Of a stretch of DNA of 20,000 bases, positions 1 through 19,722 are shown one piece after another; positions within the stretch are counted from its first letter, which is position 1; each line of letters begins with the position of its first letter. This stretch comes from an uncultured virus (IMG/VR IMGVR_UViG_3300020050_011573) (Duplodnaviria > Heunggongvirae > Uroviricota > Caudoviricetes). Below the pieces are notes generated by a model that was given only the letters and a program-made list of their open reading frames with translations, had not been told where the DNA came from and made no database searches. Position numbers and translations under genes: made by a program. The DNA lies in IMG/VR virus record IMGVR_UViG_3300020050_011573; one strand, 5' to 3'.

Positions 1-3000
1 GTATCAGCGTCCTCAATTGCGGATCCTCGAACCACTCCGCTACCTGAAACGTCGCCGGTATCCCCGCGCTCTGAAGTCGGCTGATTGCGTCGTCCATCGC
101 CTGGCGTTTGTTTTGTTCCCGTTTGAGCAATTCCATCACCCGACTTTTCATCAGATTCAAATAATCGCCCTGATCCACTGGATTGCCCTTCACTACTGAC
201 AGTGCCGGATTGCCCCCGTTCGGTGGAATCCAATATCTGACCTTGTTCGAGCTTTGTACCAAGTTCATCGTAAGACCTCACAACGGGCGGAACTTGCGCG
301 GCTGGATACTTTCTTGCCGACTTACCCCGACCGTCAATAACAATGACATCCACAGGCCAAGCCGCGCCTTGTTTCGCGTACATCTGGCCATCAATTGTGA
401 AATGATCAACTACATTGTAGGTGTCATAAAGATTTGCATAAAACTTTCGTTTCGCCGCCTGATTATATCCATCTGAGCGAGCTTCCTCAGTTTTCGCCAT
501 CCGATTGACACCGCCAACAATCAAGACAGCCCGACCATCCGGCAACATTTCTTCTAATGCTTGAAATGCAATTGCGTGGTCTATTTCAGATGTAAGACCA
601 AACGAAGTTTCAAATTTAATTGACTCAATTAAGCCTTGCAAAAACCCTGGTTTTTTCTTTGTTTCCTTGACCGAACCAAACGGAGGGTTAGCGATTACAA
701 CATCAACAGCCTTCGACAATCTGACTTTTGTGGCATCAGCAACATTAGCATCAAATCCTTGCGCTCGAAGGTTCTCAACCCGTTTCGGATTCAGATCGTT
801 CGCTATGACATTTTTAGGATTGGCTGCGATCACCAATGCCCCATTGCCCGCTGTTGGCTCGTACACACTCGTTTTCTTGGTGATTCCGGCAAGCTGAGAC
901 GCAACATAAGCAATCGGCAATGGCGTCGAATACGCCTGATCCTGCACACTCTGCGATGTGCGCGTTCCCAACGTTGGCATCCGATGATGCAGATCCAGCA
1001 ACTTTGCGTAAGTTTCCTGTGGAGAAAGCCCTTCAGCCACAATCTTACGAGCGACGATCACCCCGGCAAGCTCTGCGTCCTCTTCCAAGGCTTTCATTTC
1101 TTCAGTGCCAGATTTGACTCCGAATGTTCGGCCCAACTGACCGTAAAGAATTTCCCCATCCAAAAGAAGATCAACAATCTTGTTTACGCGGGGAGATGCA
1201 GTCACTTTCGGTGTACTTCCTGCATCTCCCTCCTGACGACGAGCATCCCCGAGCAAACCGACATCCCCCGATACCGATTCACTGTTGTTCGCCGCAGTCT
1301 CTTTGTATGCTACCGGCTTTGTGTTGTCCTCAGTTTTGAGCCAGTTCTTGAACTCAAAATCTGACATACTGGTAACAGCGCCACGACGAGTAGGCCCGCT
1401 ATTATCGCTGAAGTGAGCATCATAAAGAGCTTCAGCCTCTTCCTTCGTCACGACACCAACAACTACTTTATGTTCATCAAACTTACCAGTTTTTGGGTCA
1501 ATCTGATCAAACACAAATACCCGCGCCGCATAAGGATTATCCCCCACATACACATCAACCTGTTCACCGTCCGCGCCTTCTGTCCGGCGAATGTAGCCGT
1601 AATGGGCGGACATCTTCACCGACCATTCTTTACCGTTCTGATCTTTGCCAGAGCGCGTTGAACCCTTTGGATTTTCGATTGTGACATCCAGCCCGTGGGT
1701 TTTGATGTGTCCCTTTTTATAATTTCCGGCTTCAATTTGAGCTTCCGTTGGCTCAGGAAGATCATTTGTCGGTGAAGTCGCCGCTTCGTTGGCTTGCTGA
1801 TCAATAGATACCAAGCGTTGTTCCTTGATTACACTATCAACGACAGGTTGAAAGGATGGATCATAGAAAGTCAGCTTTTCTACTGCACTAACACCATGCA
1901 ACCGCGCTACCTCTGAAAGATAATCCTTCACAAAAGCGGTAAGACGGGGATCATTCTTTTTATAACCAAGCAGTTCTCCATCTCCAGACAAAATAAAAGC
2001 CAGTGCTTCACGTTCATAGGTATCAAGGTCCGCCCCCTTGTAAGCCTTAGAATACCGAAGAAGTGCAGCAGCAATTTTTGAGAATTCTGGATGACGTTTA
2101 AGCCAGTCTTTACCGACCAACAACCCCTTAGCAATACTAGACTGCCATCCATGTACCCCGATTTCATGCCATCTCAATCGCGCAACACGTTCATCGCTGA
2201 AAGAATTATCCGTTGACAGAACTTGTACGGACTTTTGCCCCGCAGCCTCTGCCTTGGTAATTGCTGTCTGTAAATCTTGCGCAAGACGAAGCAGGCTATT
2301 AGCAGCATTTGGAGCGCGTTCTTGCTGTGACAATGCCAAATTATTCAAAACTTCGACAACTTGCTTTGCTGCGTTTAATGGTAAACTTGCCCCACCAAAT
2401 TCTCGAATTACAGAATTTGCAACACCTTCTCTAACAGCAATCGCTACCCATAAAGTCCGAAGACCATCATTGTTTGTCTCTACATAAGCAATTTGCCCAT
2501 GTCCAGTTTCCACATTGACAGCTTTTGATCTAGCTTTTGTAAAAGTGTCTTCCCGTGACTGTGATGCGTTTAACGGTGCAGATTCTACTTCCCATCTACC
2601 ATTTTGCGTTTCTTTTGCAGGCTCAGGAAGATCATTCTTCGGCGAGGTTGCCGCTTCGTTGGCTTGTGCTGCTATCTCAGCTTCCCTTTCCTTCCGCTCC
2701 CGATCCTGCTGCACCATTCGCTCGCCAATCTCTTTTTTGGTGAGTTTTGGTGCTGCCGGCTTCACTGACGGATTCAACGCTTTCAATCGCTTCGCTTTGA
2801 CTCGTTTCGCTCGTTCCTTGCGCGTTTCGATCAACTTGGTTCTAACGGCATTCATTTCTGGCGTATTGGCCTCTAACCCGCCAAATTCACCAGAAGCAGC
2901 TGCCTGTGCTTGAACCTCCTGCAAAGCCTCTAAATAAGAATCAAAATCTTCATCAGATACAGACGACAACTCGGCACCAAGAAGTTGACGCTGTTGGTTT

Positions 3001-6000
3001 GTAAAACCTTTACTCGCTGGCTGAGGGGCTTTCGCATCGTTCACGTCGTTGCGAGGGCTTGAGGGCTGAGCTTTTTTCGGTGTCCAGTCATACACCGAAA
3101 TTATTTGATCTCTACGAAATGGTAACGCAATGACTTTCCCATCTTCATCACGACGCATAATGCCATCATATCCAGCCTCTTCAATCTCCCGCATCCGGTC
3201 AGGATCGTTAACAAGTTCCACTTGCTCCAAACGATCTTTCACTATGTAAGGGTTACGCAAATCCAACCACGCTGAATAAACTCGCGCCGGCCCTTCCGTT
3301 CCACCTAAATGCGCCCCTTCCGCGTACTGCGAACCAAACTCTGCATCGCTGGTAAACCAACTTGCCTCTTTAGGAGAATCAAACGCCGTTGAACTGGACG
3401 TTCCGTGATACATCGGCGCCGGATTACCCGCATTGTCTGTCACCGCTGTTCCACGAATCTTTTCAGGAAAACGACGTATTGACAGCGGAGCTTTAGATAA
3501 ATCCGACTCTTCCTTTCCTTTTGCCTTTGATATTCCCGGCACTCCATATTTCTTTTGCCAGTTTGCAATGTCTGAAATGTGAGCGTCAACGTGATGCTGG
3601 CCCAGGTTGTTGGCGCGAGCGTAATCACGCAAGACTTTGATTCCGGCTTTCCCTTCGTCCGAGTTGAGATTCACATCATAAAGACGCTTCACAAGGTCTT
3701 TATTCGCCCCTTCGATAATCTTGTAGGGCGACATTGAGACGCCAGGTTTGGCAGGTTTCGTTACTGGCCTGTCAGCTTCTGCCAACCCAGGCGAAGTAGT
3801 AAGCCGACCACCAGTAAGACCATCATCAACATTTTGAGTCTCCTTTTCAGCTAAACCGCGTCTCTGTTGAGCTTCGGCAAGCGTTGTTTCGATCCATTCC
3901 GCCGACATGCCAGCCTGGTCAGCCTGCTCAACAAAATCACGCGCCAGTTTTTTCGTGTAGATTGTCCGCGGATTGTCCAGCGCACGATAGACACGGGTAA
4001 ATTCACTGGTTTGGTCGGCTAAAAGAGAATCTAGCCTATCTGCTTCGGCTTGTTGTTCTGACGTCATCTGCTCACGCTGATAATCACCAAAACTTTCCGT
4101 TTCCCTGTCTCCCTGTCTTCTTGTCTCTTGTTCAACCTCACGGATGAATTCTTGCGGCGTTTCCGCCCTGGTTAAGCCTTCGCTGGCCATTCGTTCGCGC
4201 ATCTGGTCCGGCGACTCCCCGCCTTTGCGCGAAATCAACCCAGTTGTCCCGGACTCTTTTGGCCCCAGGCGATCCAACTCGCCCTTTTCAACTGCTCCTT
4301 CCGGCGCTGCAATCCCGCCCGCACGACGAATCTCAGTCAACAAATTGCCCTGAACATCATCCCCAGCATCACCAATTGTCTCAGTTTGCGGCTGTACACC
4401 CGTCGCTTTTGCTAAATTCTTGAAGAATGGCGAAACATTCTTCTGAATATCCTGCACAAGAGCCTGTTCTTGCTGCTGTGCTTGGACAAGCTGTTGCTCA
4501 ACAATCACACCGGCCTGTGCGTTCTGCTGTTCGATTGGCGAGGGAACTTGTCCCATCATCTGCTTTGCCTGTGCGGATTGCTGGGACGGAAGTAATTCTT
4601 GTTGCTGAGTCTGTAATTGCTGAATCTGTTCCTGAATCTGTGTGATTGCCTCTAACGGCTTGGCCAATTTGTCCAGTGTCGCATCATCGGCCAGGGCAAC
4701 GGTCTGAGGATCAATTCCCGATTTCACCAAGGTTTGAACAATCGGATGGTCAGGTTGAGTCTGAAGTGTTTGCTCAATGGCTTCAACCATCGGCAAATGT
4801 GGGGAATTGCGCTGAGCCAGTTTTTCAAGCGCAACTTGTGATGCTCCGCCACCAGCACCCAAAAACAATGCAGGCACAGCGTTATGCGCCGCATTGCTGA
4901 GCATCTGTCCGGCTGTCAAATTTGGCTTATGACCAGAATAATACTTTGCTCCAACATCAGAAATTCCAGACTGTAAACCTTCTTGTCCGCCTTCTTGAGC
5001 CGACTCTTTCAGAATATGGCCAACAACCTTTTTCCCAGTTTTGGCTCCCGTTCCCATCAAAGAGCCAGCCCCCAGGGATTCAACGCCACCTGAAATCGTT
5101 TGTGTCGCTGTCAAACGCCGAAGCTGATCCGGCGTAGCCCCAGCATCACGCGCCTGATGGTATTCTTCCGGCACTTCCATTGCAGCACCGACCGCACCAG
5201 CAACCAACCGAGGCGAGACACCCAATGCGCGACCAGCCCCACCAGCCGCTATGAATGGAACCATTGATCCGCCAGCTTCCGGCATTGTAGCTGTCCAAAA
5301 GTCAGGGTTTAATGGGTTTATTGTCGGCTGGCGAGTCTCATCAACGGGATATAAGCCTTTTGCCGCACGTTCGCCAAGCCGTGTAATTCCTTCAAGTCTG
5401 TCTCCAAGCGAGGCTTGGCGGTTTTGATGATCAATTTGAGCAGCAATCTTCGCTTTTTCTTCTGGTGGCAAAGCGCGTAATTTAGGATCACTTTCAACGA
5501 CATCATTTCCCGTAACTGTAAACGATTCATCAACCAATCGGCTAAGTCCTTCAGGGATTGAAAAAATTCCCTTGGTTGCGGAACCCATAAAGCGATTTAC
5601 CGCTTCTTCGCCTCTCCCAACCGGCGCATTGATGAATTCCTCTTCCGGTTTCAATCCTCCCGCTGCTGTGGTCAAAACTCGACGACTGAACCGTGTAAAT
5701 GGATTTTCAGACTCAACCTGCCGGCGCATTCGGCGCAATTCCGCTGCGCGTTCCATCTCTTTTGGATCAAACTTTGTTTGACCAGTATCTACCCCTTCAA
5801 GCCGGCGTTGAGTTTGTTTGGGATTCTCTTTTGCGTAAGCCCATTTTCGAGAAGATGCAGAATCAGCATCTTTCCCAAATCCAATTTCAATAAAATCACT
5901 CAAACCAGGTACTTTTAAGGCTTTTTCAGCTAACTGGTTGGCTTCAGCCAATTCGCGTTCAGCATCAGCCAGCGAATGACGACGCGCATTTTCATCTGTG

Positions 6001-6551
6001 TAGGTTCCTGTAGACCGAAATAGTTCTGTTGCGCGAGCTTTCTTTCGATTGATTTCATTCAGAATCGCTTGAGCATCTTTTTCTGTAACCGTTGATCGAG
6101 CAGCAACCGAACCAGGCTGTGTACCAGTCTTTTTTTGCTTTTGCGGTTCACTCAACCACTTGTTGTAATCCTTGACATCCTTGAAATCGCGGTCTGGTTC
6201 TCTTGTTTCCGTCACTTTACGGATTTTTAGCCAGGTGGATAACTCTTTTGCACTTTCAAAGCCTTGCTTCGGCTTCCAATTCTTGACATCAGATTGCGAC
6301 TCAAATGCCAAATCTCCTGGCAATTTTCCTTTTTTCTGCGGCTGTGGCTTTGACTCCGGAATATTCAATTCTTCAATCGGCGCTTCGATTGCCCATGAAG
6401 TCTTTCGACCAAATATCTTTTCCGCAGGCGTCTGGCTGGAAACATCATCCACCGCAATCTGAGACGGTAGGGAGACTTCTTCAACCGAAATCGGCTGGAT
6501 TGGCCGAACTGGTTGCTGTTGCTGGAAATCGTCAAAGTAGTTGCGCGGCAT
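1..6551 (-). CDS. Large polyvalent protein (DarB-like, probably virion-delivered); runs off the left edge; at least 2183 aa
   Basis: Manual translation from ATG 6551 (MPRNYFDDFQQQQP...), 3 nt after the upstream TAA, stays open in one frame to position 3. Gly/Ala-rich hydrophobic segments ~4850-5280, Q-rich coil ~4440-4640, then ART (MYHGT...WFTSD...YA...WLDLRNP...GYDGI), HEIGVH, InPase and MTase (YEPTAGNG, NPPFG) motifs. Absent from the ORF track, presumably because it has no in-window stop. Confidence 0.92.
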   Translation of the reverse strand, partial: MPRNYFDDFQQQQPVRPIQPISVEEVSLPSQIAVDDVSSQTPAEKIFGRKTSWAIEAPIEELNIPESKPQPQKKGKLPGDLAFESQSDVKNWKPKQGFESAKELSTWLKIRKVTETREPDRDFKDVKDYNKWLSEPQKQKKTGTQPGSVAARSTVTEKDAQAILNEINRKKARATELFRSTGTYTDENARRHSLADAERELAEANQLAEKALKVPGLSDFIEIGFGKDADSASSRKWAYAKENPKQTQRRLEGVDTGQTKFDPKEMERAAELRRMRRQVESENPFTRFSRRVLTTAAGGLKPEEEFINAPVGRGEEAVNRFMGSATKGIFSIPEGLSRLVDESFTVTGNDVVESDPKLRALPPEEKAKIAAQIDHQNRQASLGDRLEGITRLGERAAKGLYPVDETRQPTINPLNPDFWTATMPEAGGSMVPFIAAGGAGRALGVSPRLVAGAVGAAMEVPEEYHQARDAGATPDQLRRLTATQTISGGVESLGAGSLMGTGAKTGKKVVGHILKESAQEGGQEGLQSGISDVGAKYYSGHKPNLTAGQMLSNAAHNAVPALFLGAGGGASQVALEKLAQRNSPHLPMVEAIEQTLQTQPDHPIVQTLVKSGIDPQTVALADDATLDKLAKPLEAITQIQEQIQQLQTQQQELLPSQQSAQAKQMMGQVPSPIEQQNAQAGVIVEQQLVQAQQQEQALVQDIQKNVSPFFKNLAKATGVQPQTETIGDAGDDVQGNLLTEIRRAGGIAAPEGAVEKGELDRLGPKESGTTGLISRKGGESPDQMRERMASEGLTRAETPQEFIREVEQETRRQGDRETESFGDYQREQMTSEQQAEADRLDSLLADQTSEFTRVYRALDNPRTIYTKKLARDFVEQADQAGMSAEWIETTLAEAQQRRGLAEKETQNVDDGLTGGRLTTSPGLAEADRPVTKPAKPGVSMSPYKIIEGANKDLVKRLYDVNLNSDEGKAGIKVLRDYARANNLGQHHVDAHISDIANWQKKYGVPGISKAKGKEESDLSKAPLSIRRFPEKIRGTAVTDNAGNPAPMYHGTSSSTAFDSPKEASWFTSDAEFGSQYAEGAHLGGTEGPARVYSAWLDLRNPYIVKDRLEQVELVNDPDRMREIEEAGYDGIMRRDEDGKVIALPFRRDQIISVYDWTPKKAQPSSPRNDVNDAKAPQPASKGFTNQQRQLLGAELSSVSDEDFDSYLEALQEVQAQAAASGEFGGLEANTPEMNAVRTKLIETRKERAKRVKAKRLKALNPSVKPAAPKLTKKEIGERMVQQDRERKEREAEIAAQANEAATSPKNDLPEPAKETQNGRWEVESAPLNASQSREDTFTKARSKAVNVETGHGQIAYVETNNDGLRTLWVAIAVREGVANSVIREFGGASLPLNAAKQVVEVLNNLALSQQERAPNAANSLLRLAQDLQTAITKAEAAGQKSVQVLSTDNSFSDERVARLRWHEIGVHGWQSSIAKGLLVGKDWLKRHPEFSKIAAALLRYSKAYKGADLDTYEREALAFILSGDGELLGYKKNDPRLTAFVKDYLSEVARLHGVSAVEKLTFYDPSFQPVVDSVIKEQRLVSIDQQANEAATSPTNDLPEPTEAQIEAGNYKKGHIKTHGLDVTIENPKGSTRSGKDQNGKEWSVKMSAHYGYIRRTEGADGEQVDVYVGDNPYAARVFVFDQIDPKTGKFDEHKVVVGVVTKEEAEALYDAHFSDNSGPTRRGAVTSMSDFEFKNWLKTEDNTKPVAYKETAANNSESVSGDVGLLGDARRQEGDAGSTPKVTASPRVNKIVDLLLDGEILYGQLGRTFGVKSGTEEMKALEEDAELAGVIVARKIVAEGLSPQETYAKLLDLHHRMPTLGTRTSQSVQDQAYSTPLPIAYVASQLAGITKKTSVYEPTAGNGALVIAANPKNVIANDLNPKRVENLRAQGFDANVADATKVRLSKAVDVVIANPPFGSVKETKKKPGFLQGLIESIKFETSFGLTSEIDHAIAFQALEEMLPDGRAVLIVGGVNRMAKTEEARSDGYNQAAKRKFYANLYDTYNVVDHFTIDGQMYAKQGAAWPVDVIVIDGRGKSARKYPAAQVPPVVRSYDELGTKLEQGQILDSTERGQSGTVSSEGQSSGSGRLFESDEKSGDGIAQTGTKQTPGDGRRNQPTSERGDTGDVSGSGVVRGSAIEDAD
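300..940 (-). other. N6-adenine DNA methyltransferase domain of the polyvalent protein
   Basis: QAYSTPLPIAY (QAYSTP 921-938), SAM-binding VYEPTAGNGAL (~840-863), catalytic VIANPPFG (NPPF 678-689), then MYAKQGAAWPVDVIVIDG; the style found before Strawberry-notch/SNF2 helicases in polyvalent proteins. Confidence 0.85.
1330..1750 (-). other. InPase (inorganic pyrophosphatase-like) domain of polyvalent proteins
   Basis: PTEAQIEAGNYKKGHI...TIENPKGSTRSGKD..GKEWSVKM..HYGYIRRTEGADGEQVDVYVG...VFDQID..TGKFDEHKVVVG...EFKNWL. Confidence 0.88.
1750..2666. repeat. 47-nt imperfect in-frame direct repeat (1750-1796 and 2620-2666) encoding QANEAATSP(T/K)NDLPEP
   Basis: 42/47 identical, 870 nt (290 codons) apart, bracketing the HEIGVH module. 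Confidence 0.9.
1900..2260 (-). other. Zincin-like metallopeptidase module (HExxxH)
   Basis: RLRWHEIGVHGW (HEIGVH 2151-2168) with downstream YEREALAFIL as candidate third Zn ligand; boundaries approximate. Confidence 0.55.
3090..3460 (-). other. ADP-ribosyltransferase domain (ART-PolyVal-like)
   Basis: VTDNAGNPAPMYHGTS...WFTSDAEFGSQYA...RVYSAWLDLRNP...EEAGYDGIM...FRRDQI. Confidence 0.8.
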
Positions 6552-9226: not shown

Positions 9227-9711
9227 TGATTTACTCCAGTTTGGCCGATCCCCGGTAAGAGTTTCGGCATTTGGTTGTTCTCGTAGGCAGCGGCAATTTG
9301 CGGAATCACGTAATCGCCAACCGTCTGCCCGTTCGGTAAAACGATATGAGCCATAAACTCTTGTTCAAAAGTCGAAATCTTCGCTTCCACAGCTTCAAGC
9401 TTGGCCTTTACAACCAACGTCAAAGCCCGCCATCGCTGCCGTGTGGCTTGTTCCCAAGCTTCGCGCTGTTGTTGAGGGCTTCGCACTGTCCCACGCACTG
9501 GCGTTAGCTTAAAGTCCCTAAAAGCTGGCATTTTGAGCATAAATTGAACCCGCAGAGTTTTAACCCTGAATGCCAACACCGCAACAGGCGGGTTTATGTC
9601 TTCATCCCAGCCATAAGAGAACCCAGATGCACCATACCGGCGAAGGATTGATTCAATCTCCGCTCGTGATTTCTCTGCGCTAACTTCTGTATTTGCTGCA
9701 AATTTTGCCAT
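9223..9711 (-). CDS. Conserved phage hypothetical protein, 162 aa
   Basis: Start 9711 after GAGGGAGG; MAKFAANTEVSAEKSRAEIE..L.RYGA...WRAL.LVVKAKLEAVE..ISTFEQEF.AHIVLPNGQTV. Confidence 0.8.
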   Translation of the reverse strand: MAKFAANTEVSAEKSRAEIESILRRYGASGFSYGWDEDINPPVAVLAFRVKTLRVQFMLKMPAFRDFKLTPVRGTVRSPQQQREAWEQATRQRWRALTLVVKAKLEAVEAKISTFEQEFMAHIVLPNGQTVGDYVIPQIAAAYENNQMPKLLPGIGQTGVNQ

Positions 9712-9728
9712 CCCAATACCTCCCTCTA

Positions 9729-9797
9729 TTCCAGCGGCGGGACTCGAACCCGCATTCCCGGCTTGCGGCCAGAGTTTCACCGTTACCTCACGCTGGA
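9729..9797 (-). tRNA. Degenerate tRNA-like element (possible GCA/Cys anticodon; pseudo-tRNA)
   Basis: Acceptor TCCAGCG/CGCTGGA, perfect T-arm GCGGG-TTCGAGT-CCCGC, D-loop-like AACGGTGAA with poor D-stem, anticodon arm TCTGG-CCGCAAG-CCGGG with C at 33; no encoded CCA. Confidence 0.55.
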
Positions 9798-9827
9798 ACC
9801 AATGAGCCGACGATCCTCAGCGCCGAC

Positions 9828-10064
9828 TCAAACTTTGCTCTTTAGAGCTTGTTCTTCCCAGTACTTCTCAAGCAGCTTGTTAGACTGTGATTGAATCTCC
9901 CGCGCCCAGTCTTTCACGTTCACATCATCGCTGCACTGGAGAATCTTTCCTGCACAATTTCTAATCGTCGCCAATGGCGAGGCCGATCCTCGCGGCAACG
10001 TCATTTCGTCCTTTGGTGTGCAACTCTGATTCAAGTCTATCTGCAATTGTTCTTCTGCGTTCAT
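9828..10064 (-). CDS. Small hypothetical protein, start uncertain (10064, 10004 or TTG near 9974)
   Basis: Fills the gap between 9961 and the tRNA-like element; AAGGAG before ATG 10064; overlaps the end of the upstream frame. Confidence 0.45.
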   Translation of the reverse strand: MNAEEQLQIDLNQSCTPKDEMTLPRGSASPLATIRNCAGKILQCSDDVNVKDWAREIQSQSNKLLEKYWEEQALKSKV

Positions 10065-10785
10065 TTTCGGGTAACTCCTTCCAAGATTGAAATTCAAATT
10101 TGCCCACTCGGGCGAAAACGTAAGAGAAAGGCGGTTCTCCATCACGCCAGCGAAGCTTGACTTGGAATCCCTTGTCATTCGCCGGACATTCCCACCAAGA
10201 GCCAGTTTCGGGAGTGGGCAAAAGCGGCTTTACGTCATTTTGCTCACTGGTGGGCAAATCCAATAACTCCCGCTTTTTCCGTGACTTAACTTTTGGTTGC
10301 TCACTGGTGGGCAAATCCGGTTTCTGTGTCGCTTTTAGTCCAGCATCAGCACTTTGCACACCAGCCGAACCAGCCAGGGAACCCACAACTCTTTTGTGAG
10401 CCACCCGCCGAGGGCCAATATGCACACCAGAAAGGCTCTTGCTAATATCTTCATCGGTTACTGGCTCCAAGTCAGCACCATGGACACCAGCGCCAGGATC
10501 CCCAGGCCCACGGTGATGCAAAATAGCGTCTTTTTGCGCACTTCCTTTTTGAATTCGTGCATTTTTTACCTCTTCCCCGCTTCCCTGCCCCGAGTTTTCC
10601 ACAAGTTGAGAATCCTTTGAAACTTCATCAAATCTGCGGCTAAACTCTTCTGCCGGCATCACTTCTTCAATTCGACGCCCGTCAGGGTGAGTAAAAATCG
10701 CTTTTCCGTTCGACCAATACCCACCCCAGCCTTCTTTTGCATGCCAGCCGTCACCACTCCATGACGACTGGCCTACACGTTTCCC
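9961..10785 (-). CDS. -1 frame extension (272 aa) of the membrane protein, reached by programmed frameshift
   Basis: Open frame overlapping the end of 10773..11627 in -1 phase; no convincing independent start; low-complexity linker then a Trp-containing, probably globular C-terminus (SWWECPANDKGFQVKLRWRD...). Confidence 0.75.
   Translation of the reverse strand, partial: GKRVGQSSWSGDGWHAKEGWGGYWSNGKAIFTHPDGRRIEEVMPAEEFSRRFDEVSKDSQLVENSGQGSGEEVKNARIQKGSAQKDAILHHRGPGDPGAGVHGADLEPVTDEDISKSLSGVHIGPRRVAHKRVVGSLAGSAGVQSADAGLKATQKPDLPTSEQPKVKSRKKRELLDLPTSEQNDVKPLLPTPETGSWWECPANDKGFQVKLRWRDGEPPFSYVFARVGKFEFQSWKELPENERRRTIADRLESELHTKGRNDVAARIGLAIGDD
10240..10318. repeat. Perfect 22-nt direct repeat (10240-10261, 10297-10318) encoding DLPTSEQ
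   Basis: TTGCTCACTGGTGGGCAAATCC twice, 57 nt apart; partial third copy GTGGGCAAA at 10214-10222. Confidence 0.9.
10743..10785 (-). promoter_or_regulatory. Programmed -1 ribosomal frameshift signal
   Basis: G GGA AAC (10785-10779) in X XXY YYZ phase, spacer GTGTAG containing the 0-frame stop, hairpin GCCAGTCGTCAT-ggagtg-GTGACGGCTGGC (10772-10743). Confidence 0.8.
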
Positions 10786-11627
10786 GGTGATTGGTTCGAT
10801 TGGGCTGTAGCTCCTGCCGTTTGTCCGGAAGCGAAGCCTACCGGCTGCCTCAAAGGCGGTTCGCTGGGTTGAGCAAACTTGGAATTGCCGCTGGCAGAAT
10901 GCGCCGCCAATCCAAGGCAAATGACTGTCAGCAGTCCCAGGAAAAGCGGTACGACGGTCAGCCCGTAGCGCTCATACGTGTTGAGTTTGGCAATATCCAC
11001 TGCTGTGGGTGTGGCATCTGCTTCAGCCTCAGCAGAAGAGGGAGGCTTTGCCGCTGCCTTGCCGGACCGAATAAATTCACGCGCAAGCCGCTTGTCCTGC
11101 GCCGCAAGCTGGCCAGCCAACTCTGCCTGTTTTTCGATCAGTTTTCGCTGTTCTTCGGCAGCCTGGCGCTGTGCGACCAACTGATGCTCGGATGCTTTAC
11201 TTGCCATCGTTTCTTGCCAATCAAGATCGAGTGCAATGGATGCGTTGATGAGCAGGACAGCCGTTAAGACAATCTGACAGATCATTGCGACACCGGCAAT
11301 GCGCTGGCTTTCAGAAGTTGCCATCCAAGCGCAGATGATAGCCATCAGTTCAGCGCCAACTGTGCCGATGATGCCAATCTTGCCCATCCCAACCAGCCGC
11401 CCGGACAGGTGAGAACCAACAATGACGAGGGTGAAAACGGTAGACAGGACGGCCAACGCGACACCAACCCATTTCAGGATTGACAGTTCGCGGCTCATTG
11501 TCCCGGCGACCATCACAGTAGATGCGGCCAACAGGCTGAAAATCGCCAGCTTACCGGCAAAGTTGCCGTTTATCGGCAAGCTGTCCATAGCTCCAGAAAA
11601 CAATGCGATAAAAATTTTGTTGTACAT
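10773..11627 (-). CDS. Multi-pass membrane protein with coiled coil, 284 aa
   Basis: GGAGG RBS; about four N-terminal hydrophobic helices, a Q/E/A coiled coil, and a further hydrophobic helix (GLTVVPLFLGLLTVICLGLA). Confidence 0.85.
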   Translation of the reverse strand: MYNKIFIALFSGAMDSLPINGNFAGKLAIFSLLAASTVMVAGTMSRELSILKWVGVALAVLSTVFTLVIVGSHLSGRLVGMGKIGIIGTVGAELMAIICAWMATSESQRIAGVAMICQIVLTAVLLINASIALDLDWQETMASKASEHQLVAQRQAAEEQRKLIEKQAELAGQLAAQDKRLAREFIRSGKAAAKPPSSAEAEADATPTAVDIAKLNTYERYGLTVVPLFLGLLTVICLGLAAHSASGNSKFAQPSEPPLRQPVGFASGQTAGATAQSNQSPGNV

Positions 11628-11893
11628 TTTCCAATGCCTCCAATTTGTTTGTTTTACGGGCGTTCAGCCCCCAAGCCAAACGCCCTACCACTAAGAGAAC
11701 TCGTTACCAAGTGATTAAGCTTCCATCGGCAAGCCCTCCTTTGTTGAAAAGGGAACGTTAGAATCAGAGTTGGCCTTACACGCCCAAAAGCAGACCATTT
11801 ACCTTGATACTTTCATCTCAAGCCACCTTTCGGCTGGTTTCTGCCTGCCGTCCTGCCCGGCGCTCTGATTTTCAATCAGCTTCAACTACGCAT

Positions 11894-11939
11894 AAGATAC
11901 ACGAACTGCATTGCAGATGCAATGCACTTTTGCTACTAT
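11894..11939. promoter_or_regulatory. Overlapping divergent promoters sharing a palindromic operator
   Basis: Palindrome TGCATTGCA-GA-TGCAATGCA (11907-11926). Rightward TTGCAG (11911-16)-17-TACTAT (11934-39); leftward TTGCAT (11922-17)-17-TATCTT (11899-94). Confidence 0.75.
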
Positions 11940-11946
11940 CCGGCGT

Positions 11947-12156
11947 ATGGCAAAGAAAAAAGAAGGTGAACTTCCCAAAGAAAACATCACATTGCGAATT
12001 GATCCGGCGATCATCCGCAAAGCTCATCAACTGGCCAACGAATCGAATCAATCTCTTGTCTGGTGGTTTGAAAACACCTTGGCCACAGCCTGGGGATTAC
12101 GAAGCTGGCCCAAGCCGCCCAAAGGACTCAAAAAAGCAAAGGAAATAAAACCGTAA
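11947..12156 (+). CDS. Ribbon-helix-helix (Arc/CopG-like) regulator, 69 aa, probably leaderless
   Basis: KENITLRIDPAIIRKAHQLANESNQSLVWWFENTL; ATG follows the -10 box after 7 nt with no RBS. Confidence 0.75.
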   Translation: MAKKKEGELPKENITLRIDPAIIRKAHQLANESNQSLVWWFENTLATAWGLRSWPKPPKGLKKAKEIKP

Positions 12157-12434
12157 TGACGTTACTTGAGAAAATGCGCGCTAAAAAAGAAGCAATTGAC
12201 GCGATGCCGGCATTACCGCAACAACCCAGGCTGATCAAGCGACAGTCTCAATGCCGGCCCGTATTACTGCTACTCGCAAACAAGCAAAAACGTTTCTCAT
12301 CTCTCCAAATGGCTGCCAAATGGCTGACAACTGAACTAGATCAACCCTGTTCACCGTCTGGAATAGGGCAGGCTATCCGACGAAATAACCCCTACAAAGG
12401 ATACAAATTTAAGTACGAGGAAGGCCGCAAATGA
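12156..12434 (+). CDS. Small basic protein with NUMOD1-like HTH DNA-binding motif
   Basis: KRFSSLQMAAKWL...SGIGQAIRRNNPYKGYKFKY. Confidence 0.65.
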   Translation: MTLLEKMRAKKEAIDAMPALPQQPRLIKRQSQCRPVLLLLANKQKRFSSLQMAAKWLTTELDQPCSPSGIGQAIRRNNPYKGYKFKYEEGRK

Positions 12435-12834: not shown

Positions 12835-15048
12835 TCACCGATCCCTGATCGTCCTGACCGTTCGACCTGAGTAGCTTTCCCGGCCCGTATATCGTTCGTC
12901 CTGAATGTCCTTCGCAATCTCGTGACGCGCTTCCTGATAAGCGTAATACGCCGTGTAACCCTCCTCTTTCATCGTCTCCAACGCCTGACCGTCTTTGAAA
13001 GACTTCTGCAACCGCTGCTGGAGTCTTTCCTCATCTGTCAACGCCACCATCGAGGGAAGAGCAGCACAGATTGCTCGCACAACGTCAAAAGCGTCATCGA
13101 ACTTCTTGAAATGCCGCTGTGCTTTGACCGGCTTGCCTTCCTCGCTTTGTGGAATATGGATCCTCGGCAACTCTTCGCGTGTGCGCTTGAATCCGGTCAC
13201 GTCATTGAGTGCTGGCTTGACGGTCCACCGGCTTTTTGTGGCTGAAATCAACCGGCTGATTTGCTCTTTTCGCTCGATCAAGCTGGCAAGCTGACTGCTC
13301 ACCATTTCAGGGTATTCAAGCGGGAAACCGTCAACGACCGGCATCAACTCGCCTTGCTTGTCCTCCACGATGATGAACGCCCTTGGATGCCCGTGTAGTT
13401 CTGGCCGGAATGGATGCTTGCCCGCGTAAGGCGTGAAATAGGCCTGTGTTTGTGGATAGCCCATCGTGTAACCGGCTTCGGTATCCCATTTTTGGAAGGG
13501 AAGCCCAAAGTGATCTTGATAAATCAACCGCTCTGATTCGGCTTCGTGCGAGATAAGCCAGTTCTCAATATCATCATCCCGAATGTACTTCTTGAGCGTG
13601 TCCTTAATGATTGGAGCCATGATCAACGGTTGCGCGCCTTCACCCATAAAAATTTGAACGTGAAAAAACAAATGCCGAGGAAGGACACTGTTTGCCGGGG
13701 CCATTGCAGCAGCGATCAACACGGTGGGATGATCGTCTGATGTGCCGCAGTCCATTGCAATCGTGTGGCGCCAGCCTTTGGGAATTCGGAACTGTCCATC
13801 ATCACCAATGGCTGTTTGCCCAAAGACGTTGATAAACTCAGCCTGTGTGATGACGTGATGCGGTTCGGAGAACATCCAGAGCAGACGACCAGCCACCGAA
13901 CCCTCATAGTCCAAATCCCACTCTTGCGCCAATTCCACCGCACTCAACCGGCGTGATGCAATCCTGTAGCTGTCTTCAGTCTTCCAAGGATGCTGTCTCC
14001 AGTGGAGAGAGAAGTGCGGAATATTCTTATCAGTCTTTAACTCGCCGAACTTATTGAATTTCCCTTGTGGAGTGGACACAGCCAACCGAGTACGAGTACT
14101 TTCTGATGCAGCAGTCCAAGCAGCATATCCACCAGATGGCCAAGCCGCAGACTCATCGAAAACCACCATAGCCTGACGACCACCACGCGCAAACTGCTCA
14201 TTTGCGGACTCGCCTTTGAGCAATGAGCCAGTGACCGGATTCTTGATATTGAGAAATGGCGCATGCTTTGCGAACGTGAACCCTTTCGGCAACATCCAGC
14301 CAGGGACCAGGCGAAGCGCAATCCGGCCTTTTTCAAGCAAGGTGTCTGAGTCGCCCACCTTATCCACAAAAGCTTCTTTGCGGCTTCCATAGGTGGCTGT
14401 GAATGGCTGGCGTTCGGGGGCAAGCAACCACTCCATTGCACCGAAGACCATCACAATCCACGATGCCCCCAGATCGCGAGATTTATCAAGATGACCATCT
14501 TTGCGTTGGGTGTAGACGAGGTTGTAAATCCAGCCAATCAACTCATCTTGGCAATTGAAAGGCAGGAAGGGAATGTAGGTGAGTGGCGCATCGGTCCTTG
14601 GGTCACTTGTCCATGCCCAATGATGCCACCAGTGAATGCGCCCAGGTAACCCGGCTTTGCACTTGGCGATTTCAGCTTCCTGCTTCTCCGGCGAATCAAG
14701 CGCTTCCCAGTAGGCGAGACGGCGTTGGGCTTCTTCTGATGCTCGCACAAGCTTTTGCTCGACCAGCCAGCGGTAATATTTGGCTTCAAGGATTTCAATC
14801 TCAACGGCTTCGATTTCATCAGGCGGAGCATCAGCCGCAATCAGGGCAGAGCGTTTATCTTCGTTCTCCCTGATGCCCTGGTCAATCTTGGCCTGTTCCG
14901 GCTCGATCAAGTCTTTGCCGTTGATGGCATCGTGGAGAGCTTGGAGTAATCGTTGGTCGTTTAGCTGACCTTCGGTGATACGAAACTCTGCTTTTGACAG
15001 CTTGGGAGCGCCAGACAAAACAGAGAACATTAGAGAGTCATCGGCCAT
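12835..15048 (-). CDS. terL: Terminase large subunit
   Basis: Walker A-like LDKSRDLGASW, Walker B VVFDESA, coupling motif STPQG, RNase H-fold nuclease IAMDCG and KFDDAFD. Confidence 0.92.
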   Translation of the reverse strand: MADDSLMFSVLSGAPKLSKAEFRITEGQLNDQRLLQALHDAINGKDLIEPEQAKIDQGIRENEDKRSALIAADAPPDEIEAVEIEILEAKYYRWLVEQKLVRASEEAQRRLAYWEALDSPEKQEAEIAKCKAGLPGRIHWWHHWAWTSDPRTDAPLTYIPFLPFNCQDELIGWIYNLVYTQRKDGHLDKSRDLGASWIVMVFGAMEWLLAPERQPFTATYGSRKEAFVDKVGDSDTLLEKGRIALRLVPGWMLPKGFTFAKHAPFLNIKNPVTGSLLKGESANEQFARGGRQAMVVFDESAAWPSGGYAAWTAASESTRTRLAVSTPQGKFNKFGELKTDKNIPHFSLHWRQHPWKTEDSYRIASRRLSAVELAQEWDLDYEGSVAGRLLWMFSEPHHVITQAEFINVFGQTAIGDDGQFRIPKGWRHTIAMDCGTSDDHPTVLIAAAMAPANSVLPRHLFFHVQIFMGEGAQPLIMAPIIKDTLKKYIRDDDIENWLISHEAESERLIYQDHFGLPFQKWDTEAGYTMGYPQTQAYFTPYAGKHPFRPELHGHPRAFIIVEDKQGELMPVVDGFPLEYPEMVSSQLASLIERKEQISRLISATKSRWTVKPALNDVTGFKRTREELPRIHIPQSEEGKPVKAQRHFKKFDDAFDVVRAICAALPSMVALTDEERLQQRLQKSFKDGQALETMKEEGYTAYYAYQEARHEIAKDIQDERYTGRESYSGRTVRTIRDR

Positions 15049-15100: not shown

Positions 15101-15790
15101 TCAGTCAGATTCTTGTGAGTTTTCCTGCAAATCTATTACCGGCCCAACGCCCAACTCAGTTGTCACTCGCACACCACCTGCAAACTCTTCGCGCAGCCTT
15201 GGAGCAGCAGGGAAGTGTGGCGTGATCTTCAAGATCGCTTCTTCAGCCGACATATCAAACATTGCCATGGCTGTGCGAATTGCGGTCCTGGTGCGCTCCA
15301 ACTCGTCATCCCGCGCTTCGATGCCCATCCACTTGCCCAGCGTCTGCGCGGCCTTCTGTGAGTCAACCATCTTGAGATGGATTACGCGATCAACAGTCTC
15401 CTCATCTTTCGATCCGCGCACACGCTTGACGGTCTCTGTGATCCTCAATTCCTTGATCAAATGAGAGACGCCGGCTTTTCGAGCAGCGATCACGACAGGC
15501 TCATCAGGGAGCAAATCAGCAATGTCCGCACGCAAGTGACTGGCCACAGTACCAATTACCTCTACAGCGGTAATATCGGCAGCAGCAGCGAGCAGTTCCT
15601 TCCGCCTGTGGAACTCAGCCACGAACGCGGGGTTTTTGAGCCAGGAGTTAACGGTTTGCTCCGGAATATTTTTTGCGCGACACGCAGCTTGGAAGTTCCA
15701 ATTGAGAGCGCCGAGTGCAGCGATAAAGGAGCGTTGGACCGCGTTTACAGCGAGAGATTTGCGAGTTGTGCCTTTACGCTTGGTCTTCAT
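15101..15790 (-). CDS. terS: Terminase small subunit
   Basis: N-terminal HTH (NFQAACRAKNIPEQTVNSWLKNP), DITAVEVI...ADIADL, KMVDSQKAAQTLGKWMG; directly upstream of terL. ATG 15790 preferred over TTG 15811. Confidence 0.8.
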   Translation of the reverse strand: MKTKRKGTTRKSLAVNAVQRSFIAALGALNWNFQAACRAKNIPEQTVNSWLKNPAFVAEFHRRKELLAAAADITAVEVIGTVASHLRADIADLLPDEPVVIAARKAGVSHLIKELRITETVKRVRGSKDEETVDRVIHLKMVDSQKAAQTLGKWMGIEARDDELERTRTAIRTAMAMFDMSAEEAILKITPHFPAAPRLREEFAGGVRVTTELGVGPVIDLQENSQESD

Positions 15791-15799
15791 AACTCGTTG

Positions 15800-15827
15800 A
15801 GTATAGGGCAATTAGAGCAGTGATCAA
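15800..15827 (-). promoter_or_regulatory. Candidate terS promoter (nearly leaderless)
   Basis: TTGATC (15827-22), 16 nt, TATACT (15805-00); 9 nt to ATG 15790. Confidence 0.45.
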
Positions 15828-18428: not shown

Positions 18429-18540
18429 CACTCGCACAATTCTCCGCTGGGGATGGTGCCTCTAATCCAGCCCAATTCATAACTCGCTCACTGATCACGC
18501 CTTACGGTCAGTGGGAGGCATTGGGAGAAAAGGCAATACA

Positions 18541-19722
18541 ATGACAGATAAAAAGCGATCATCTCTTACTGGGGAATGGGGGACCTTTGTCTCCGTTCCA
18601 ACCAAATTTACCAAAAACAGCCGATCTTTGACTGACCAAGGCCGATGGTTATTTGTTCTTCTCCGCGAATACACGAACAGCGAAAGCCAGGTAGCGTTTC
18701 CCAGCTATGACACAATCTTTGAACGCACAGGCTGGGCAAGAAAAACCATCTCCAAAGCAATCAGCGATCTTGTCACACACGGCTGGCTTACCTATGAAAA
18801 GTCCTTTGGCGGCGTGAATAATTACACCCTGATCAAGCCCGCCAATAGTTCCAATCGGCAACTATTACAAGAAAGCGTCAATAGTTCCCAACGGAAACTC
18901 CAAAAGTTGCCAATGGAAACTCCAATAGTTCCCGACGGAAACTCTATTAAGATAGAGTCTATCCAGATTGAGTCTACTAAGATTGAGTCTTCTTTGTCGA
19001 AACGCGCAAAAGACGCACGTTCGACGGAGGGTAAAGGGACTTCTCTCCAGATCGTCAAACAGCTTGACCCGCTCGATACCGACTTTGGCTTTCCTGAGAT
19101 GGAGTCGCCAATTGTGCGAGCAATAGTGTGCAAGGCACACGCCCCCGAAGTCGCGCAGCCCCCCACCAGCCCCGACGCCCAGGCCACACTCCGCACCCCG
19201 CACGCACAAGCAGCACTGGTATATCCGGAACTTGCCGAAATAAAGCCCGCCACTGATTCCGCAGGTATCACGGCAAGCATTCAAGCCGTTGAGCCGCCTT
19301 CTACCCCGGTTTCCGCCAAAAGTAGCGCACGTTCTCGCAAGCCCAAGACGGAGAAATCAGCCGAAGAATCGCAAATCTCCGCTGGCGTGGTCGAACTGAT
19401 GAACCACATCGGCAAGAAAATGGGCAAGATTCCGAATCCAGCAGGCCAAGGGAAAGCTTGCAAGGAAATGCTCAAAGCTGGCTATCCCATCGAACGAATC
19501 AAGCAGGAGCTTGAAATTCAACTCGGAGAGCTTCTCAAAGGCCGTCGCCGAGTTGTGACCTGGATGACAGTTCAACAAACAATCACCAGTTCGGTTTACG
19601 CCGAACAACACAAATCCACTGGAGGCAACAATGGAAAACTCGCAACCACAGACAATGACGACCTTTACGCATACTGTGAACAACGATCAAGACTTAGGGA
19701 AAATGGCGAAGCTCATTACTAA
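18541..19722 (+). CDS. Phage replication initiator (N-terminal winged HTH, lambda O/replisome-organiser-like layout)
   Basis: LTDQGRWLFVLL...AFPSYDTIFERTGWARKTISKAISDLVTHGWL..GGVNNY; iterons in the linker; start ATG 18541. Confidence 0.85.
   Translation: MTDKKRSSLTGEWGTFVSVPTKFTKNSRSLTDQGRWLFVLLREYTNSESQVAFPSYDTIFERTGWARKTISKAISDLVTHGWLTYEKSFGGVNNYTLIKPANSSNRQLLQESVNSSQRKLQKLPMETPIVPDGNSIKIESIQIESTKIESSLSKRAKDARSTEGKGTSLQIVKQLDPLDTDFGFPEMESPIVRAIVCKAHAPEVAQPPTSPDAQATLRTPHAQAALVYPELAEIKPATDSAGITASIQAVEPPSTPVSAKSSARSRKPKTEKSAEESQISAGVVELMNHIGKKMGKIPNPAGQGKACKEMLKAGYPIERIKQELEIQLGELLKGRRRVVTWMTVQQTITSSVYAEQHKSTGGNNGKLATTDNDDLYAYCEQRSRLRENGEAHY
18843..18990. repeat. Putative replication origin: four 21-nt iterons plus three 11-mers
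   Basis: CAA(T/A)AGTT(C/G)C-N4-GG(A/C)AACT at 18843, 18879, 18901, 18923 (last three at 22-nt period); AGAT(A/T)GAGTCT at 18950, 18965, 18980 (15-nt period). Confidence 0.85.

Follow-up and report, generated by a model that had tools for sequence, protein, structure and literature searches.

The 20,000-nucleotide stretch of DNA analysed here (IMG/VR record IMGVR_UViG_3300020050_011573, from an uncultured virus of the Caudoviricetes; hereafter the window) contains a gene for a multi-pass membrane protein of 284 amino acids (aa), at the end of which we find what is in all probability a conserved, canonical signal for programmed -1 ribosomal frameshifting, giving a short and a long isoform. The mechanism is canonical and this type of recoding is already known. 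Most ribosomes would decode GGA AAC GTG and halt at the TAG that follows, producing the 284-aa protein. A fraction would pause at a hairpin, where the P- and A-site tRNAs would slip from GGA AAC to GGG AAA, and these ribosomes would read 272 more codons, resulting in a protein of 555 aa that comprises the membrane core, a long low-complexity linker, and a domain of ~65 aa. The case is built on the signal in this gene, the fact that relatives have kept it, the coding character of the distal domain, and natural in-frame fusions; that slippage occurs, and how often, we infer.

In the list of open reading frames (ORFs) and their translations the zero-frame membrane gene occupies positions 10773..11627 of the minus strand, on which all features of this gene described below are located. 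Its product has several hydrophobic segments, a charged central stretch that resembles a coiled coil, and then a last transmembrane (TM) segment, and it terminates in ...QSNQSPGNV, encoded by the final codons CAA TCA CCG GGA AAC GTG TAG. The original prediction, a model's reading of the letters and the ORF list of the window, had pointed out this gene end with an in-phase G GGA AAC, and our reading of the minus strand agrees with it. The slippery heptamer G_GGA_AAC (10785..10779, read directly) is indeed in X_XXY_YYZ phase, with the codons GGA and AAC, and the zero-frame stop TAG (10775..10773) lies 3 nucleotides (nt) past it. The predicted stimulatory hairpin (10777..10738) consists of the 12-base-pair (bp) core that had been proposed (10772..10761 paired with 10754..10743), which begins 6 nt 3' of the heptamer, and a lower stem of 4 bp; the core contains two G-U pairs and its loop (10760..10755) reads GGAGUG. 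This region folds with -39.2 kcal/mol (z = -4.54), a value that was reached in none of 200 shuffles of the 101-nt stretch, and the hairpin is the most stable of 290 local segments of 50 nt. The -1 frame extension (10779..9961) stays open for the predicted 272 codons, from CGT at 10779 to the stop at 9963..9961, with no stops in this frame and 21 in the +1 (third) frame, and the predicted trans-frame product thus amounts to 283 + 272 = 555 aa. Contigs from four public sequencing runs, belonging to three studies, span the junction and show no indel there. None of the 19 runs listed as carrying the sequence is on record as RNA, and the metagenome runs labelled 'RNA-Seq cDNA' are flagged as probably DNA. 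The contig from one of these runs is identical to the window over 10656-10857, and one variant contig carries a net insertion of 18 nt at 10607-10617 that preserves the extension frame.

Homologs of the membrane protein numbered 159 at an expect value (E) of E<=1e-3; the best 120 of these have identities of 57-97%, and the named ones are labelled Blastocatellia or Acidobacteria. The TM blocks are conserved in the alignment of the membrane proteins (A1). We compared the DNA of 38 related loci, i.e., 1 viral contig, 24 metagenome, and 13 genome sequences, among which L039 duplicates L001, L010 duplicates L032, and L018 duplicates L033. Including the window this gives 39 genes, of which 22 have the short form (the window and 21 related loci), 16 are longer single ORFs, and one (L024) runs off its contig. 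Locus L002, to which we return repeatedly, is an 82%-identical relative of the window. No DNA match was found among phage records, and a search for longer homologs of 498-2000 aa returned none, which is weak evidence by the tool's own note.

Of the 22 short-form genes, 19, representing 18 distinct sequences, have an in-phase canonical heptamer that lies 0-18 nt ahead of the stop. It reads GGGAAAA in 14 loci (L001, L003, L004, L006, L010, L026-L032, L037, and L038), GGGAAAC in two (the window and L002), and CCCAAAA in three (L005, L011, and L021), and the stop directly abuts it in 10 related loci. Within the bodies of the same genes, 28 of 10,284 codon positions (0.27% per codon) have an in-phase canonical heptamer and, compared with this background, the signal near the stop exceeds chance. 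At the protein level, which serves as a proxy only, GK, GN, or PK occurs among the last 8 residues of 86 of the 96 homolog clusters with short tails, most of which end exactly in GK.

A hairpin is present 1-10 nt 3' of the heptamer in every complete locus, with folding energies of -18 to -39.5 kcal/mol over 75 nt. The stems occur at the same position with sequences that are unrelated between clades: GCCAGUCGUCAU... in the window and L002, GCGCCACAG...CUGUGGCGC in L006, L010, and L031, GCCGUCA...UGACGGC in L005, L011, and L021, CGCCGGUGAAUCC...GGAUUCACCGG in L029 and L030, and GGGGAACCGC...GCGGUUCCCC in L018. The stem of L002 is identical to that of the window, with a single change in the loop. 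Compensatory changes were read by eye in two inner-stem pairs between L029 and L030 and in one pair between L011 and L021. In a formal count over six sequences from loci that adjoin lexA (see below), 82% of the cells are paired in register vs. 24-48% when slid, with one CG-to-UA pair.

In each of the 17 complete loci that have a canonical heptamer, the -1 ORF remains open over 127-346 codons. All extensions and the fused homologs described below have in common a conserved C-terminal domain of ~65 aa (10182..9988 in the window; alignments A2 and A3), with the pattern ...GW.C....KR.Y..(H/Y)LSR..(W/Y)..M... in A2. In the last 70 extension codons of five locus pairs, substitutions at codon positions 1/2/3 amount to 48/43/104 (p = 2e-8), and the distal domain of the window compared with that of L002 gives 16/12/28, a pattern indicative of purifying selection on this domain. 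Between the same two loci, substitutions favour the third codon positions of the extension over nt 0-180 and 540-810. The first ~55 extension codons (RVGQSSWSGDGW...FSRRFDE; 10779..10615), conserved in the protein comparison of the window with L002 (9/4/14 at positions 1/2/3), are located upstream of every conserved candidate start.

These candidate starts in the -1 frame vary by clade, few are accompanied by a Shine-Dalgarno sequence, and no position is conserved across clades. For the window it had been stated that the extension has no good start of its own, which holds for the ATG at 10659, lacking a Shine-Dalgarno sequence and not kept in L002, but not for the GTG at 10602..10600, which is preceded by AGGA at a distance of 5-13 nt and is the strongest candidate for a start from which the -1 frame could be translated independently. 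For the distal domain itself, TTG 10257 with GGAG is the sole start in the window with a strong signal. There is no in-frame extension start before +183 nt in L002, and in L029 the stretch from the upstream -1 stop to the domain is devoid of ATG, GTG, and TTG. Read in the -1 frame, the codon at the junction is ATA in L006, L010, L027, L029, L030, and L031, and an ATG is located right at the junction of L001 and L028 (GGGAAAATG). The original prediction had named, as the outcome that would tell against it, homologs that lack the slippery site and a downstream ORF that starts independently; in the relatives the site and the hairpin are kept and a conserved start is mostly absent.

Thirteen longer relatives (L007, L008, L009, L012, L015, L016, L017, L019, L020, L022, L023, L025, and L034) encode the linker and the domain in frame. 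These fused genes are colinear with the -1 extensions of their siblings L005, L011, and L021. For example, SIEPSGMPDLTASV...GRYQFRQDGMGWECREIV... in the -1 extension of L011 lines up with ...QKSVEPSETPDLTASV...GRYQFCKDGAGWRC..., which L007 encodes in frame, with the join precisely at the heptamer's lysine codon. The fused genes have C_CCG_AAA at this site, which is no longer slippery, and the stem is degraded in several of them. These in-frame fusions suggest that the membrane part and the extension function as one polypeptide, and the split form is not an error, given that three distinct split sequences are found alongside many different fused ones. A different in-frame C-terminal region is found in three further long forms (L013, L014, and L036). 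The fused-only lineages, together with L035, which is without an extension, show that neither isoform is indispensable everywhere. Overall, the heptamers and hairpins of the homologs and the in-frame fusions lend support to the two isoforms, of 284 and ~555 aa, that had been predicted to arise by -1 frameshifting.

A profile of the C-terminal domain retrieved 148 representatives among 1.84 billion proteins, mostly called ORFs of 60-260 aa in which the domain is C-terminal. Pfam, PHROGs, NCBIfam, and PADLOC provided no match for the membrane protein, the extension, the nested ORFs described below, or 57 hits of the profile search. A profile search against PDB sequences gave nothing significant (best E 0.75-1.1), and in the ESM Atlas neither the membrane protein nor its extension found a usable match. 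Two AlphaFold2 models of the C-terminal 95 aa (pLDDT 63.5 and 65.5) show a strand-strand-helix-helix-helix layout; with models of pLDDT 63-66 only, Foldseek yielded no match in the PDB at E<=1e-3 and VIA-align wide a best Z of 3.5. An AP2/Arm-type DNA-binding fold, considered at first, was dropped as it found no support. With their strongly basic linkers and a domain in which conserved aromatic and basic residues abound, the extensions would fit a cytoplasmic tail that binds nucleic acids or proteins. In the open-access literature searched, no description of this family was found.

The long linker that had been predicted is present, but in the window it is not just a linker, as it holds two nested ORFs for small membrane proteins and a set of palindromic repeats. 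ORF A (10562..10458; 34 aa with one TM segment and a good Shine-Dalgarno sequence, GGAAGAGGT) is in the frame of the membrane gene, i.e., +1 relative to the extension, and ORF B (10454..10335; 39 aa with one hydrophobic segment) begins 4 nt beyond the ORF A stop. L002 has retained both, and analogous tandem small TM ORFs are found in L001 and L003. By our own count ORF A has ~84% aa identity to its L002 counterpart vs. ~60% for the overlapping extension frame, and the substitutions in nt 180-540 of the extension fit no single frame. ORFs A and B, as predicted from the DNA, look like overprinted genes for small membrane proteins. Given the aa sequences of the small ORFs, an extension frame open over this whole block would arise by chance with a probability of 0.08 in the window, 0.09 in L002, 0.26 in L001, and 0.03 in L003, which suggests, but does not prove, dual coding. 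The palindromes form a cluster of TTGCCCAC half-sites (10100..10318) with two exact 22-bp repeats (10240-10261 and 10297-10318), each of which holds an imperfect 18-bp palindrome TTGCCCAC-CA-GTGAGCAA, and with half-sites at 10214-10221 and 10100-10107. All 4 TTGCCCAC octamers of the 20-kb window are located within 215 bp, while 0.88 would be expected in the window as a whole. In L001 the palindrome TTGCCACACGTGGCAA occurs five times in two codon phases (5010-5520), and in L003 TCCCCACAAGTGGGGAA occurs four times (~4400-5110). Because palindromes are recurrent and those of L001 occur in two codon phases, they probably represent sites that act at the DNA level, such as operators, iterons, or similar elements. 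The chromosomal loci with short linkers have neither nested ORFs nor palindromes, and the chromosomal extensions measure 144-156 codons. A further ORF of 78 aa (10064..9828, minus strand), with a strong Shine-Dalgarno sequence (GGAAGGAG) and no family match, covers the final ~34 extension codons in a different frame.

A number of observations count against a conserved frameshift with a coding extension. L018/L033 carry the non-canonical G_GAA_AAA, and L035 has neither a heptamer nor an extension. The alignment of homologs that had been proposed as a check showed the heptamer to be conserved, but formal covariation in one clade of six sequences was no higher than in shuffles. When a fixed segment of 50 nt was used, 12 of 20 loci fell in the lowest 5% of local segments and 8 did not. 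Over the first 50 codons past the shift site, six clade pairs gave substitutions of 73/71/88, i.e., a weak third-position bias (p = 0.33), and the coding of the proximal linker consequently rests on the open frame, not on substitution patterns; a weak bias here is as expected of a poorly constrained linker. The GTG at 10602 is conserved in L002 at +183, and the database ORF P0128 begins there. ORFs A and B, which overlap the middle of the window's extension, are conserved no less well than the extension frame itself. Finally, G_GGA_AAC is described as a heptamer of low efficiency in Escherichia coli (PMC4066793). In view of this low efficiency the long isoform would probably be a minor product. 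The junction of L018/L033 reads CTG GAA AAA TAA and is followed by a 10-bp hairpin and a -1 ORF of 190 codons; single-tRNA slippage on A_AAA beside the stop codon may take place there.

These observations can be accommodated by other explanations. The membrane gene could be followed by a separate gene without any frameshift, in which case a soluble protein of ~213 aa would start at GTG 10602 (or ATG 10659) and the heptamer and hairpin would be incidental or would serve mRNA stability or translational coupling. The AGGA upstream of this GTG, kept in L002, the start of P0128 at the same position, the ATG at the junction of L001 and L028, and the many stand-alone called ORFs of 60-260 aa with the domain in the profile search are all in line with such an arrangement. 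However, called ORFs come from gene finders that are unable to model frameshifts, and two genes would leave unexplained why 19 of 22 genes have the heptamer in phase and why unrelated hairpins occur at the same spot. Moreover, in L002 the protein sequence encoded by the 55 codons ahead of GTG 10602 is conserved (9/4/14), L029 has no start before the domain, six loci have ATA as junction codon, and the in-frame fusions show that both parts work as one chain. We therefore consider two independent genes quite improbable. An assembly error or a recent frameshift mutation, making the gene a pseudogene, could in principle explain a split arrangement, as relatives with a fused single ORF do exist and an indel of 1 or 2 nt would be sufficient to split them. 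Yet the same arrangement of frames is found in 18 distinct sequences from several assemblies, always at the heptamer and hairpin, the four runs of three studies have no indel at the site, and the distal domain appears to be under purifying selection, which makes artefact or decay hardly credible. Transcriptional slippage was rejected, the A-run being just 3-4 nt long.

A further alternative is that the frameshift is real in the family but that the read-through in the window is partly vestigial. A cassette of small genes and palindromes would then have been inserted, the -1 frame would be open across it by chance, and the functional products would be the short form and the small ORFs. The chromosomal extensions of only 144-156 codons without nested ORFs fit this scenario, as do the good Shine-Dalgarno sequences of the nested ORFs, the better conservation of ORF A than of the overlapping extension frame, the substitutions over nt 180-540 that fit no single frame, and a chance of an open frame that is not negligible (0.08 for the window and 0.26 for L001). 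On the other hand, the frame is open in all 4 long-linker loci (the window, L002, L001, and L003), with a chance of 0.03 for L003, the distal domain still seems to be under purifying selection between the window and L002 (16/12/28) and has no strong start signal of its own except TTG 10257 with GGAG, and the variant with an insertion in the extension keeps the frame. On balance a vestigial read-through seems unlikely, and a programmed frameshift that produces both isoforms, in the window as in its relatives, remains the explanation we favour.

The family is not confined to viruses. The original prediction spoke of a phage membrane protein, which is appropriate for the copy in the window but too narrow for the family, in which chromosomal copies adjoin the lexA gene of the host. 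In L006, L010/L032, L026, L027, L031, and L037 the gene is located downstream of lexA and on the same strand, with a DinB-family gene on its other side; the contigs, which reach 58-186 kb where recorded, contain ordinary chromosomal genes as well. The neighbour in L006 is a LexA equivalog (171 bits vs. a cut-off of 111). In 5 out of 5 Blastocatellia genomes that hold the family, the only above-cut-off lexA lies directly upstream of a family copy. Several copies occur in some genomes, with up to 7 matches in G002, some of these being fragments at contig ends. A CI-like S24 repressor adjoins L029 and L030, and an excisionase-family helix-turn-helix gene follows the fused clade. Between the lexA terminator and the membrane gene, a conserved element spans ~90 nt and includes a long hairpin (..CCGCCTGCACCACTTGAACCG..GGGCGTTCACCGATTCGAC..GTCGAATCGGTGAGCCAACGCCC; L006 2700-2830, L026 2570-2670, and L027 2590-2670). 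This element had no match in Rfam and may represent a small RNA, a leader, or an attachment site. Upstream of lexA we observed repeated TTTCGG / CCGAAA inverted repeats (L006 1790-1830, L026 1660-1740, and L027 1620-1680), which may be the LexA box of the lexA-linked lineage. CAC-N2-GTG palindromes were considered as a shared LexA/CI operator and rejected, as they are absent from most lexA-linked loci.

Since the chromosomal members are located directly downstream of the only lexA of the host and others are found beside CI-like repressors, we tentatively propose that the protein is a membrane effector linked to DNA damage or prophage induction, in which the frameshift would set the ratio of core-only to tailed molecules. 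The short form would be the membrane core alone, and the long form would couple this core, via its basic linker, to a small domain that binds nucleic acids or proteins. This role is possible but rather doubtful: the family was present in just 5 of the 201 genomes sampled from the class, no LexA box was identified, and the copy in the window is not beside a repressor. The roles that the original prediction had suggested, namely exclusion, anti-defence, DNA anchoring, and a membrane oligomer with a set proportion of tailed subunits, are likewise conjectural; neither a protein family nor a defence model or fold gave a match.

The surroundings of the gene in the window are those of a phage or a similar element. 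Genes for the small (15811..15101) and large (15048..12835) terminase subunits are located near the membrane gene, and a replication-initiator-like gene is found at 18511..19722. No recognisable tail genes are present near the membrane gene, the neighbours being the terminase, a polyvalent protein, a tRNA, and unknown PHROGs, in accordance with the lack of a tail context noted earlier. The polyvalent protein is encoded by an ORF of >2183 aa (3..6551, minus strand) that runs off the window and contains ART-PolyVal, InPase, and DNA methyltransferase-like domains; proteins of this type are carried by phages and conjugative elements. A tRNA-Cys (GCA) at 9798..9728 (minus strand), called by both Rfam and ARAGORN, lies between the ORF at 10064..9828 and the phrog_17260 gene and, therefore, the listed GTG start of the latter at 9780 is probably too far upstream. 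It was the only hit in the Rfam scan of the window. A small, divergently oriented gene (11911..12156, plus strand) has weak similarity to DUF6364 and HicB-like antitoxins; judged by its sequence pattern, its product could be a ribbon-helix-helix DNA binder and hence a candidate for binding the palindromes. A scan of 9500-12200 for promoters and terminators found no more sites than in shuffles.

To our knowledge, few conserved -1 frameshifts have been described in bacteria and phages beyond tail assembly chaperones, insertion sequences (IS), dnaX, and a handful of others. The recoded gene described here would add a membrane protein of an unstudied family that is present in phages and, directly after lexA, in host chromosomes, and its frameshift appears to have been kept with three different heptamers and several unrelated hairpins. 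The natural variants that are always fused or never extended provide ready-made controls for the role of the isoform ratio. There is also a systematic annotation error to be considered, since gene finders treat the extension as an ORF in its own right and place its start arbitrarily. If the link with lexA reflects regulation, the family would represent an uncharacterised damage-response membrane effector in Acidobacteria.

The best-known system for comparison is the G/G-T tail assembly chaperone of phage lambda, where a -1 slip on G_GGA_AAR near the end of the gene reportedly gives a short major and a C-terminally extended minor product, the site being conserved while the proteins diverge. The gene in the window resembles it in its slip near the gene end and its predicted C-terminally extended form. 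It differs in encoding a multi-pass membrane protein without tail genes in its vicinity, and in the lexA-side chromosomal members, the strong hairpin, and the in-frame fusions of its family. A tail assembly chaperone would be expected as a soluble product encoded between the major tail and tape measure genes, which is not what is found here. In IS3- and IS1-family transposases, the frameshift signals consist of a heptamer and a 3' stem-loop or pseudoknot, with overlapping ORFs in 0/-1 register, and G_GG.A_AA.C is among the commoner IS heptamers despite its low efficiency in E. coli, G_GG.A_AA.A being more efficient (PMC4066793). The heptamer, the 3' structure, and the 0/-1 overlap are also seen in the gene of the window. 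Here, however, there is no transposase, the extension adds a linker and a small domain, and efficiencies in E. coli may not hold in Acidobacteria.

With regard to the position beside lexA, another source (PMC6851548) describes YneA, SosA, ChiZ, and DivS as membrane-bound SOS division inhibitors encoded next to lexA, for which synteny was taken as a hint, and as small, single-pass, mostly divergent from lexA, and often equipped with LysM. The chromosomal homologs in our study are likewise membrane genes of no recognised family beside lexA, a position that the copy in the window does not share. The family differs in that its protein (284 aa in the window) has four to five TM segments and a coiled coil, and in that the gene, in the chromosomal copies, is located downstream on the same strand and is probably recoded; a Pfam search revealed neither LysM nor any other Pfam domain in the 284-aa protein. 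In architecture the long form resembles p16.7 of phage phi29, a membrane-anchored DNA-binding protein with an anchor, a coiled coil, and a small C-terminal domain, the same layout as here. It would be an analogue if the C-terminal domain binds DNA, which is a guess based on the basic linker and the palindromes; no similarity in sequence or fold to p16.7 was found in the PDB sequence, Foldseek, and VIA searches. Speculatively, three layers may be combined in this DNA, i.e., the ratio set by the frameshift, the overprinted small ORFs, and palindromes bound by the C-terminal domain, with the long isoform tethering phage DNA or damaged chromosomal DNA to the inner membrane. We regard such a combination as improbable but, if true, it would amount to a recoded and SOS-linked equivalent of phi29 p16.7, or of an origin located inside its initiator gene.

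Finally, cellular genes also make use of -1 frameshifting. In dnaX (tau/gamma) and copA (CopA(Z)) it sets the ratio of two isoforms with a common N-terminus, and copA, which uses C_CCA_AAG, is itself a gene for a membrane protein. In both the shift truncates the product, whereas in the family described here it would extend the protein by 127-346 residues. The lexA-linked chromosomal copies would be another cellular example of a -1 shift that sets the ratio of two isoforms.

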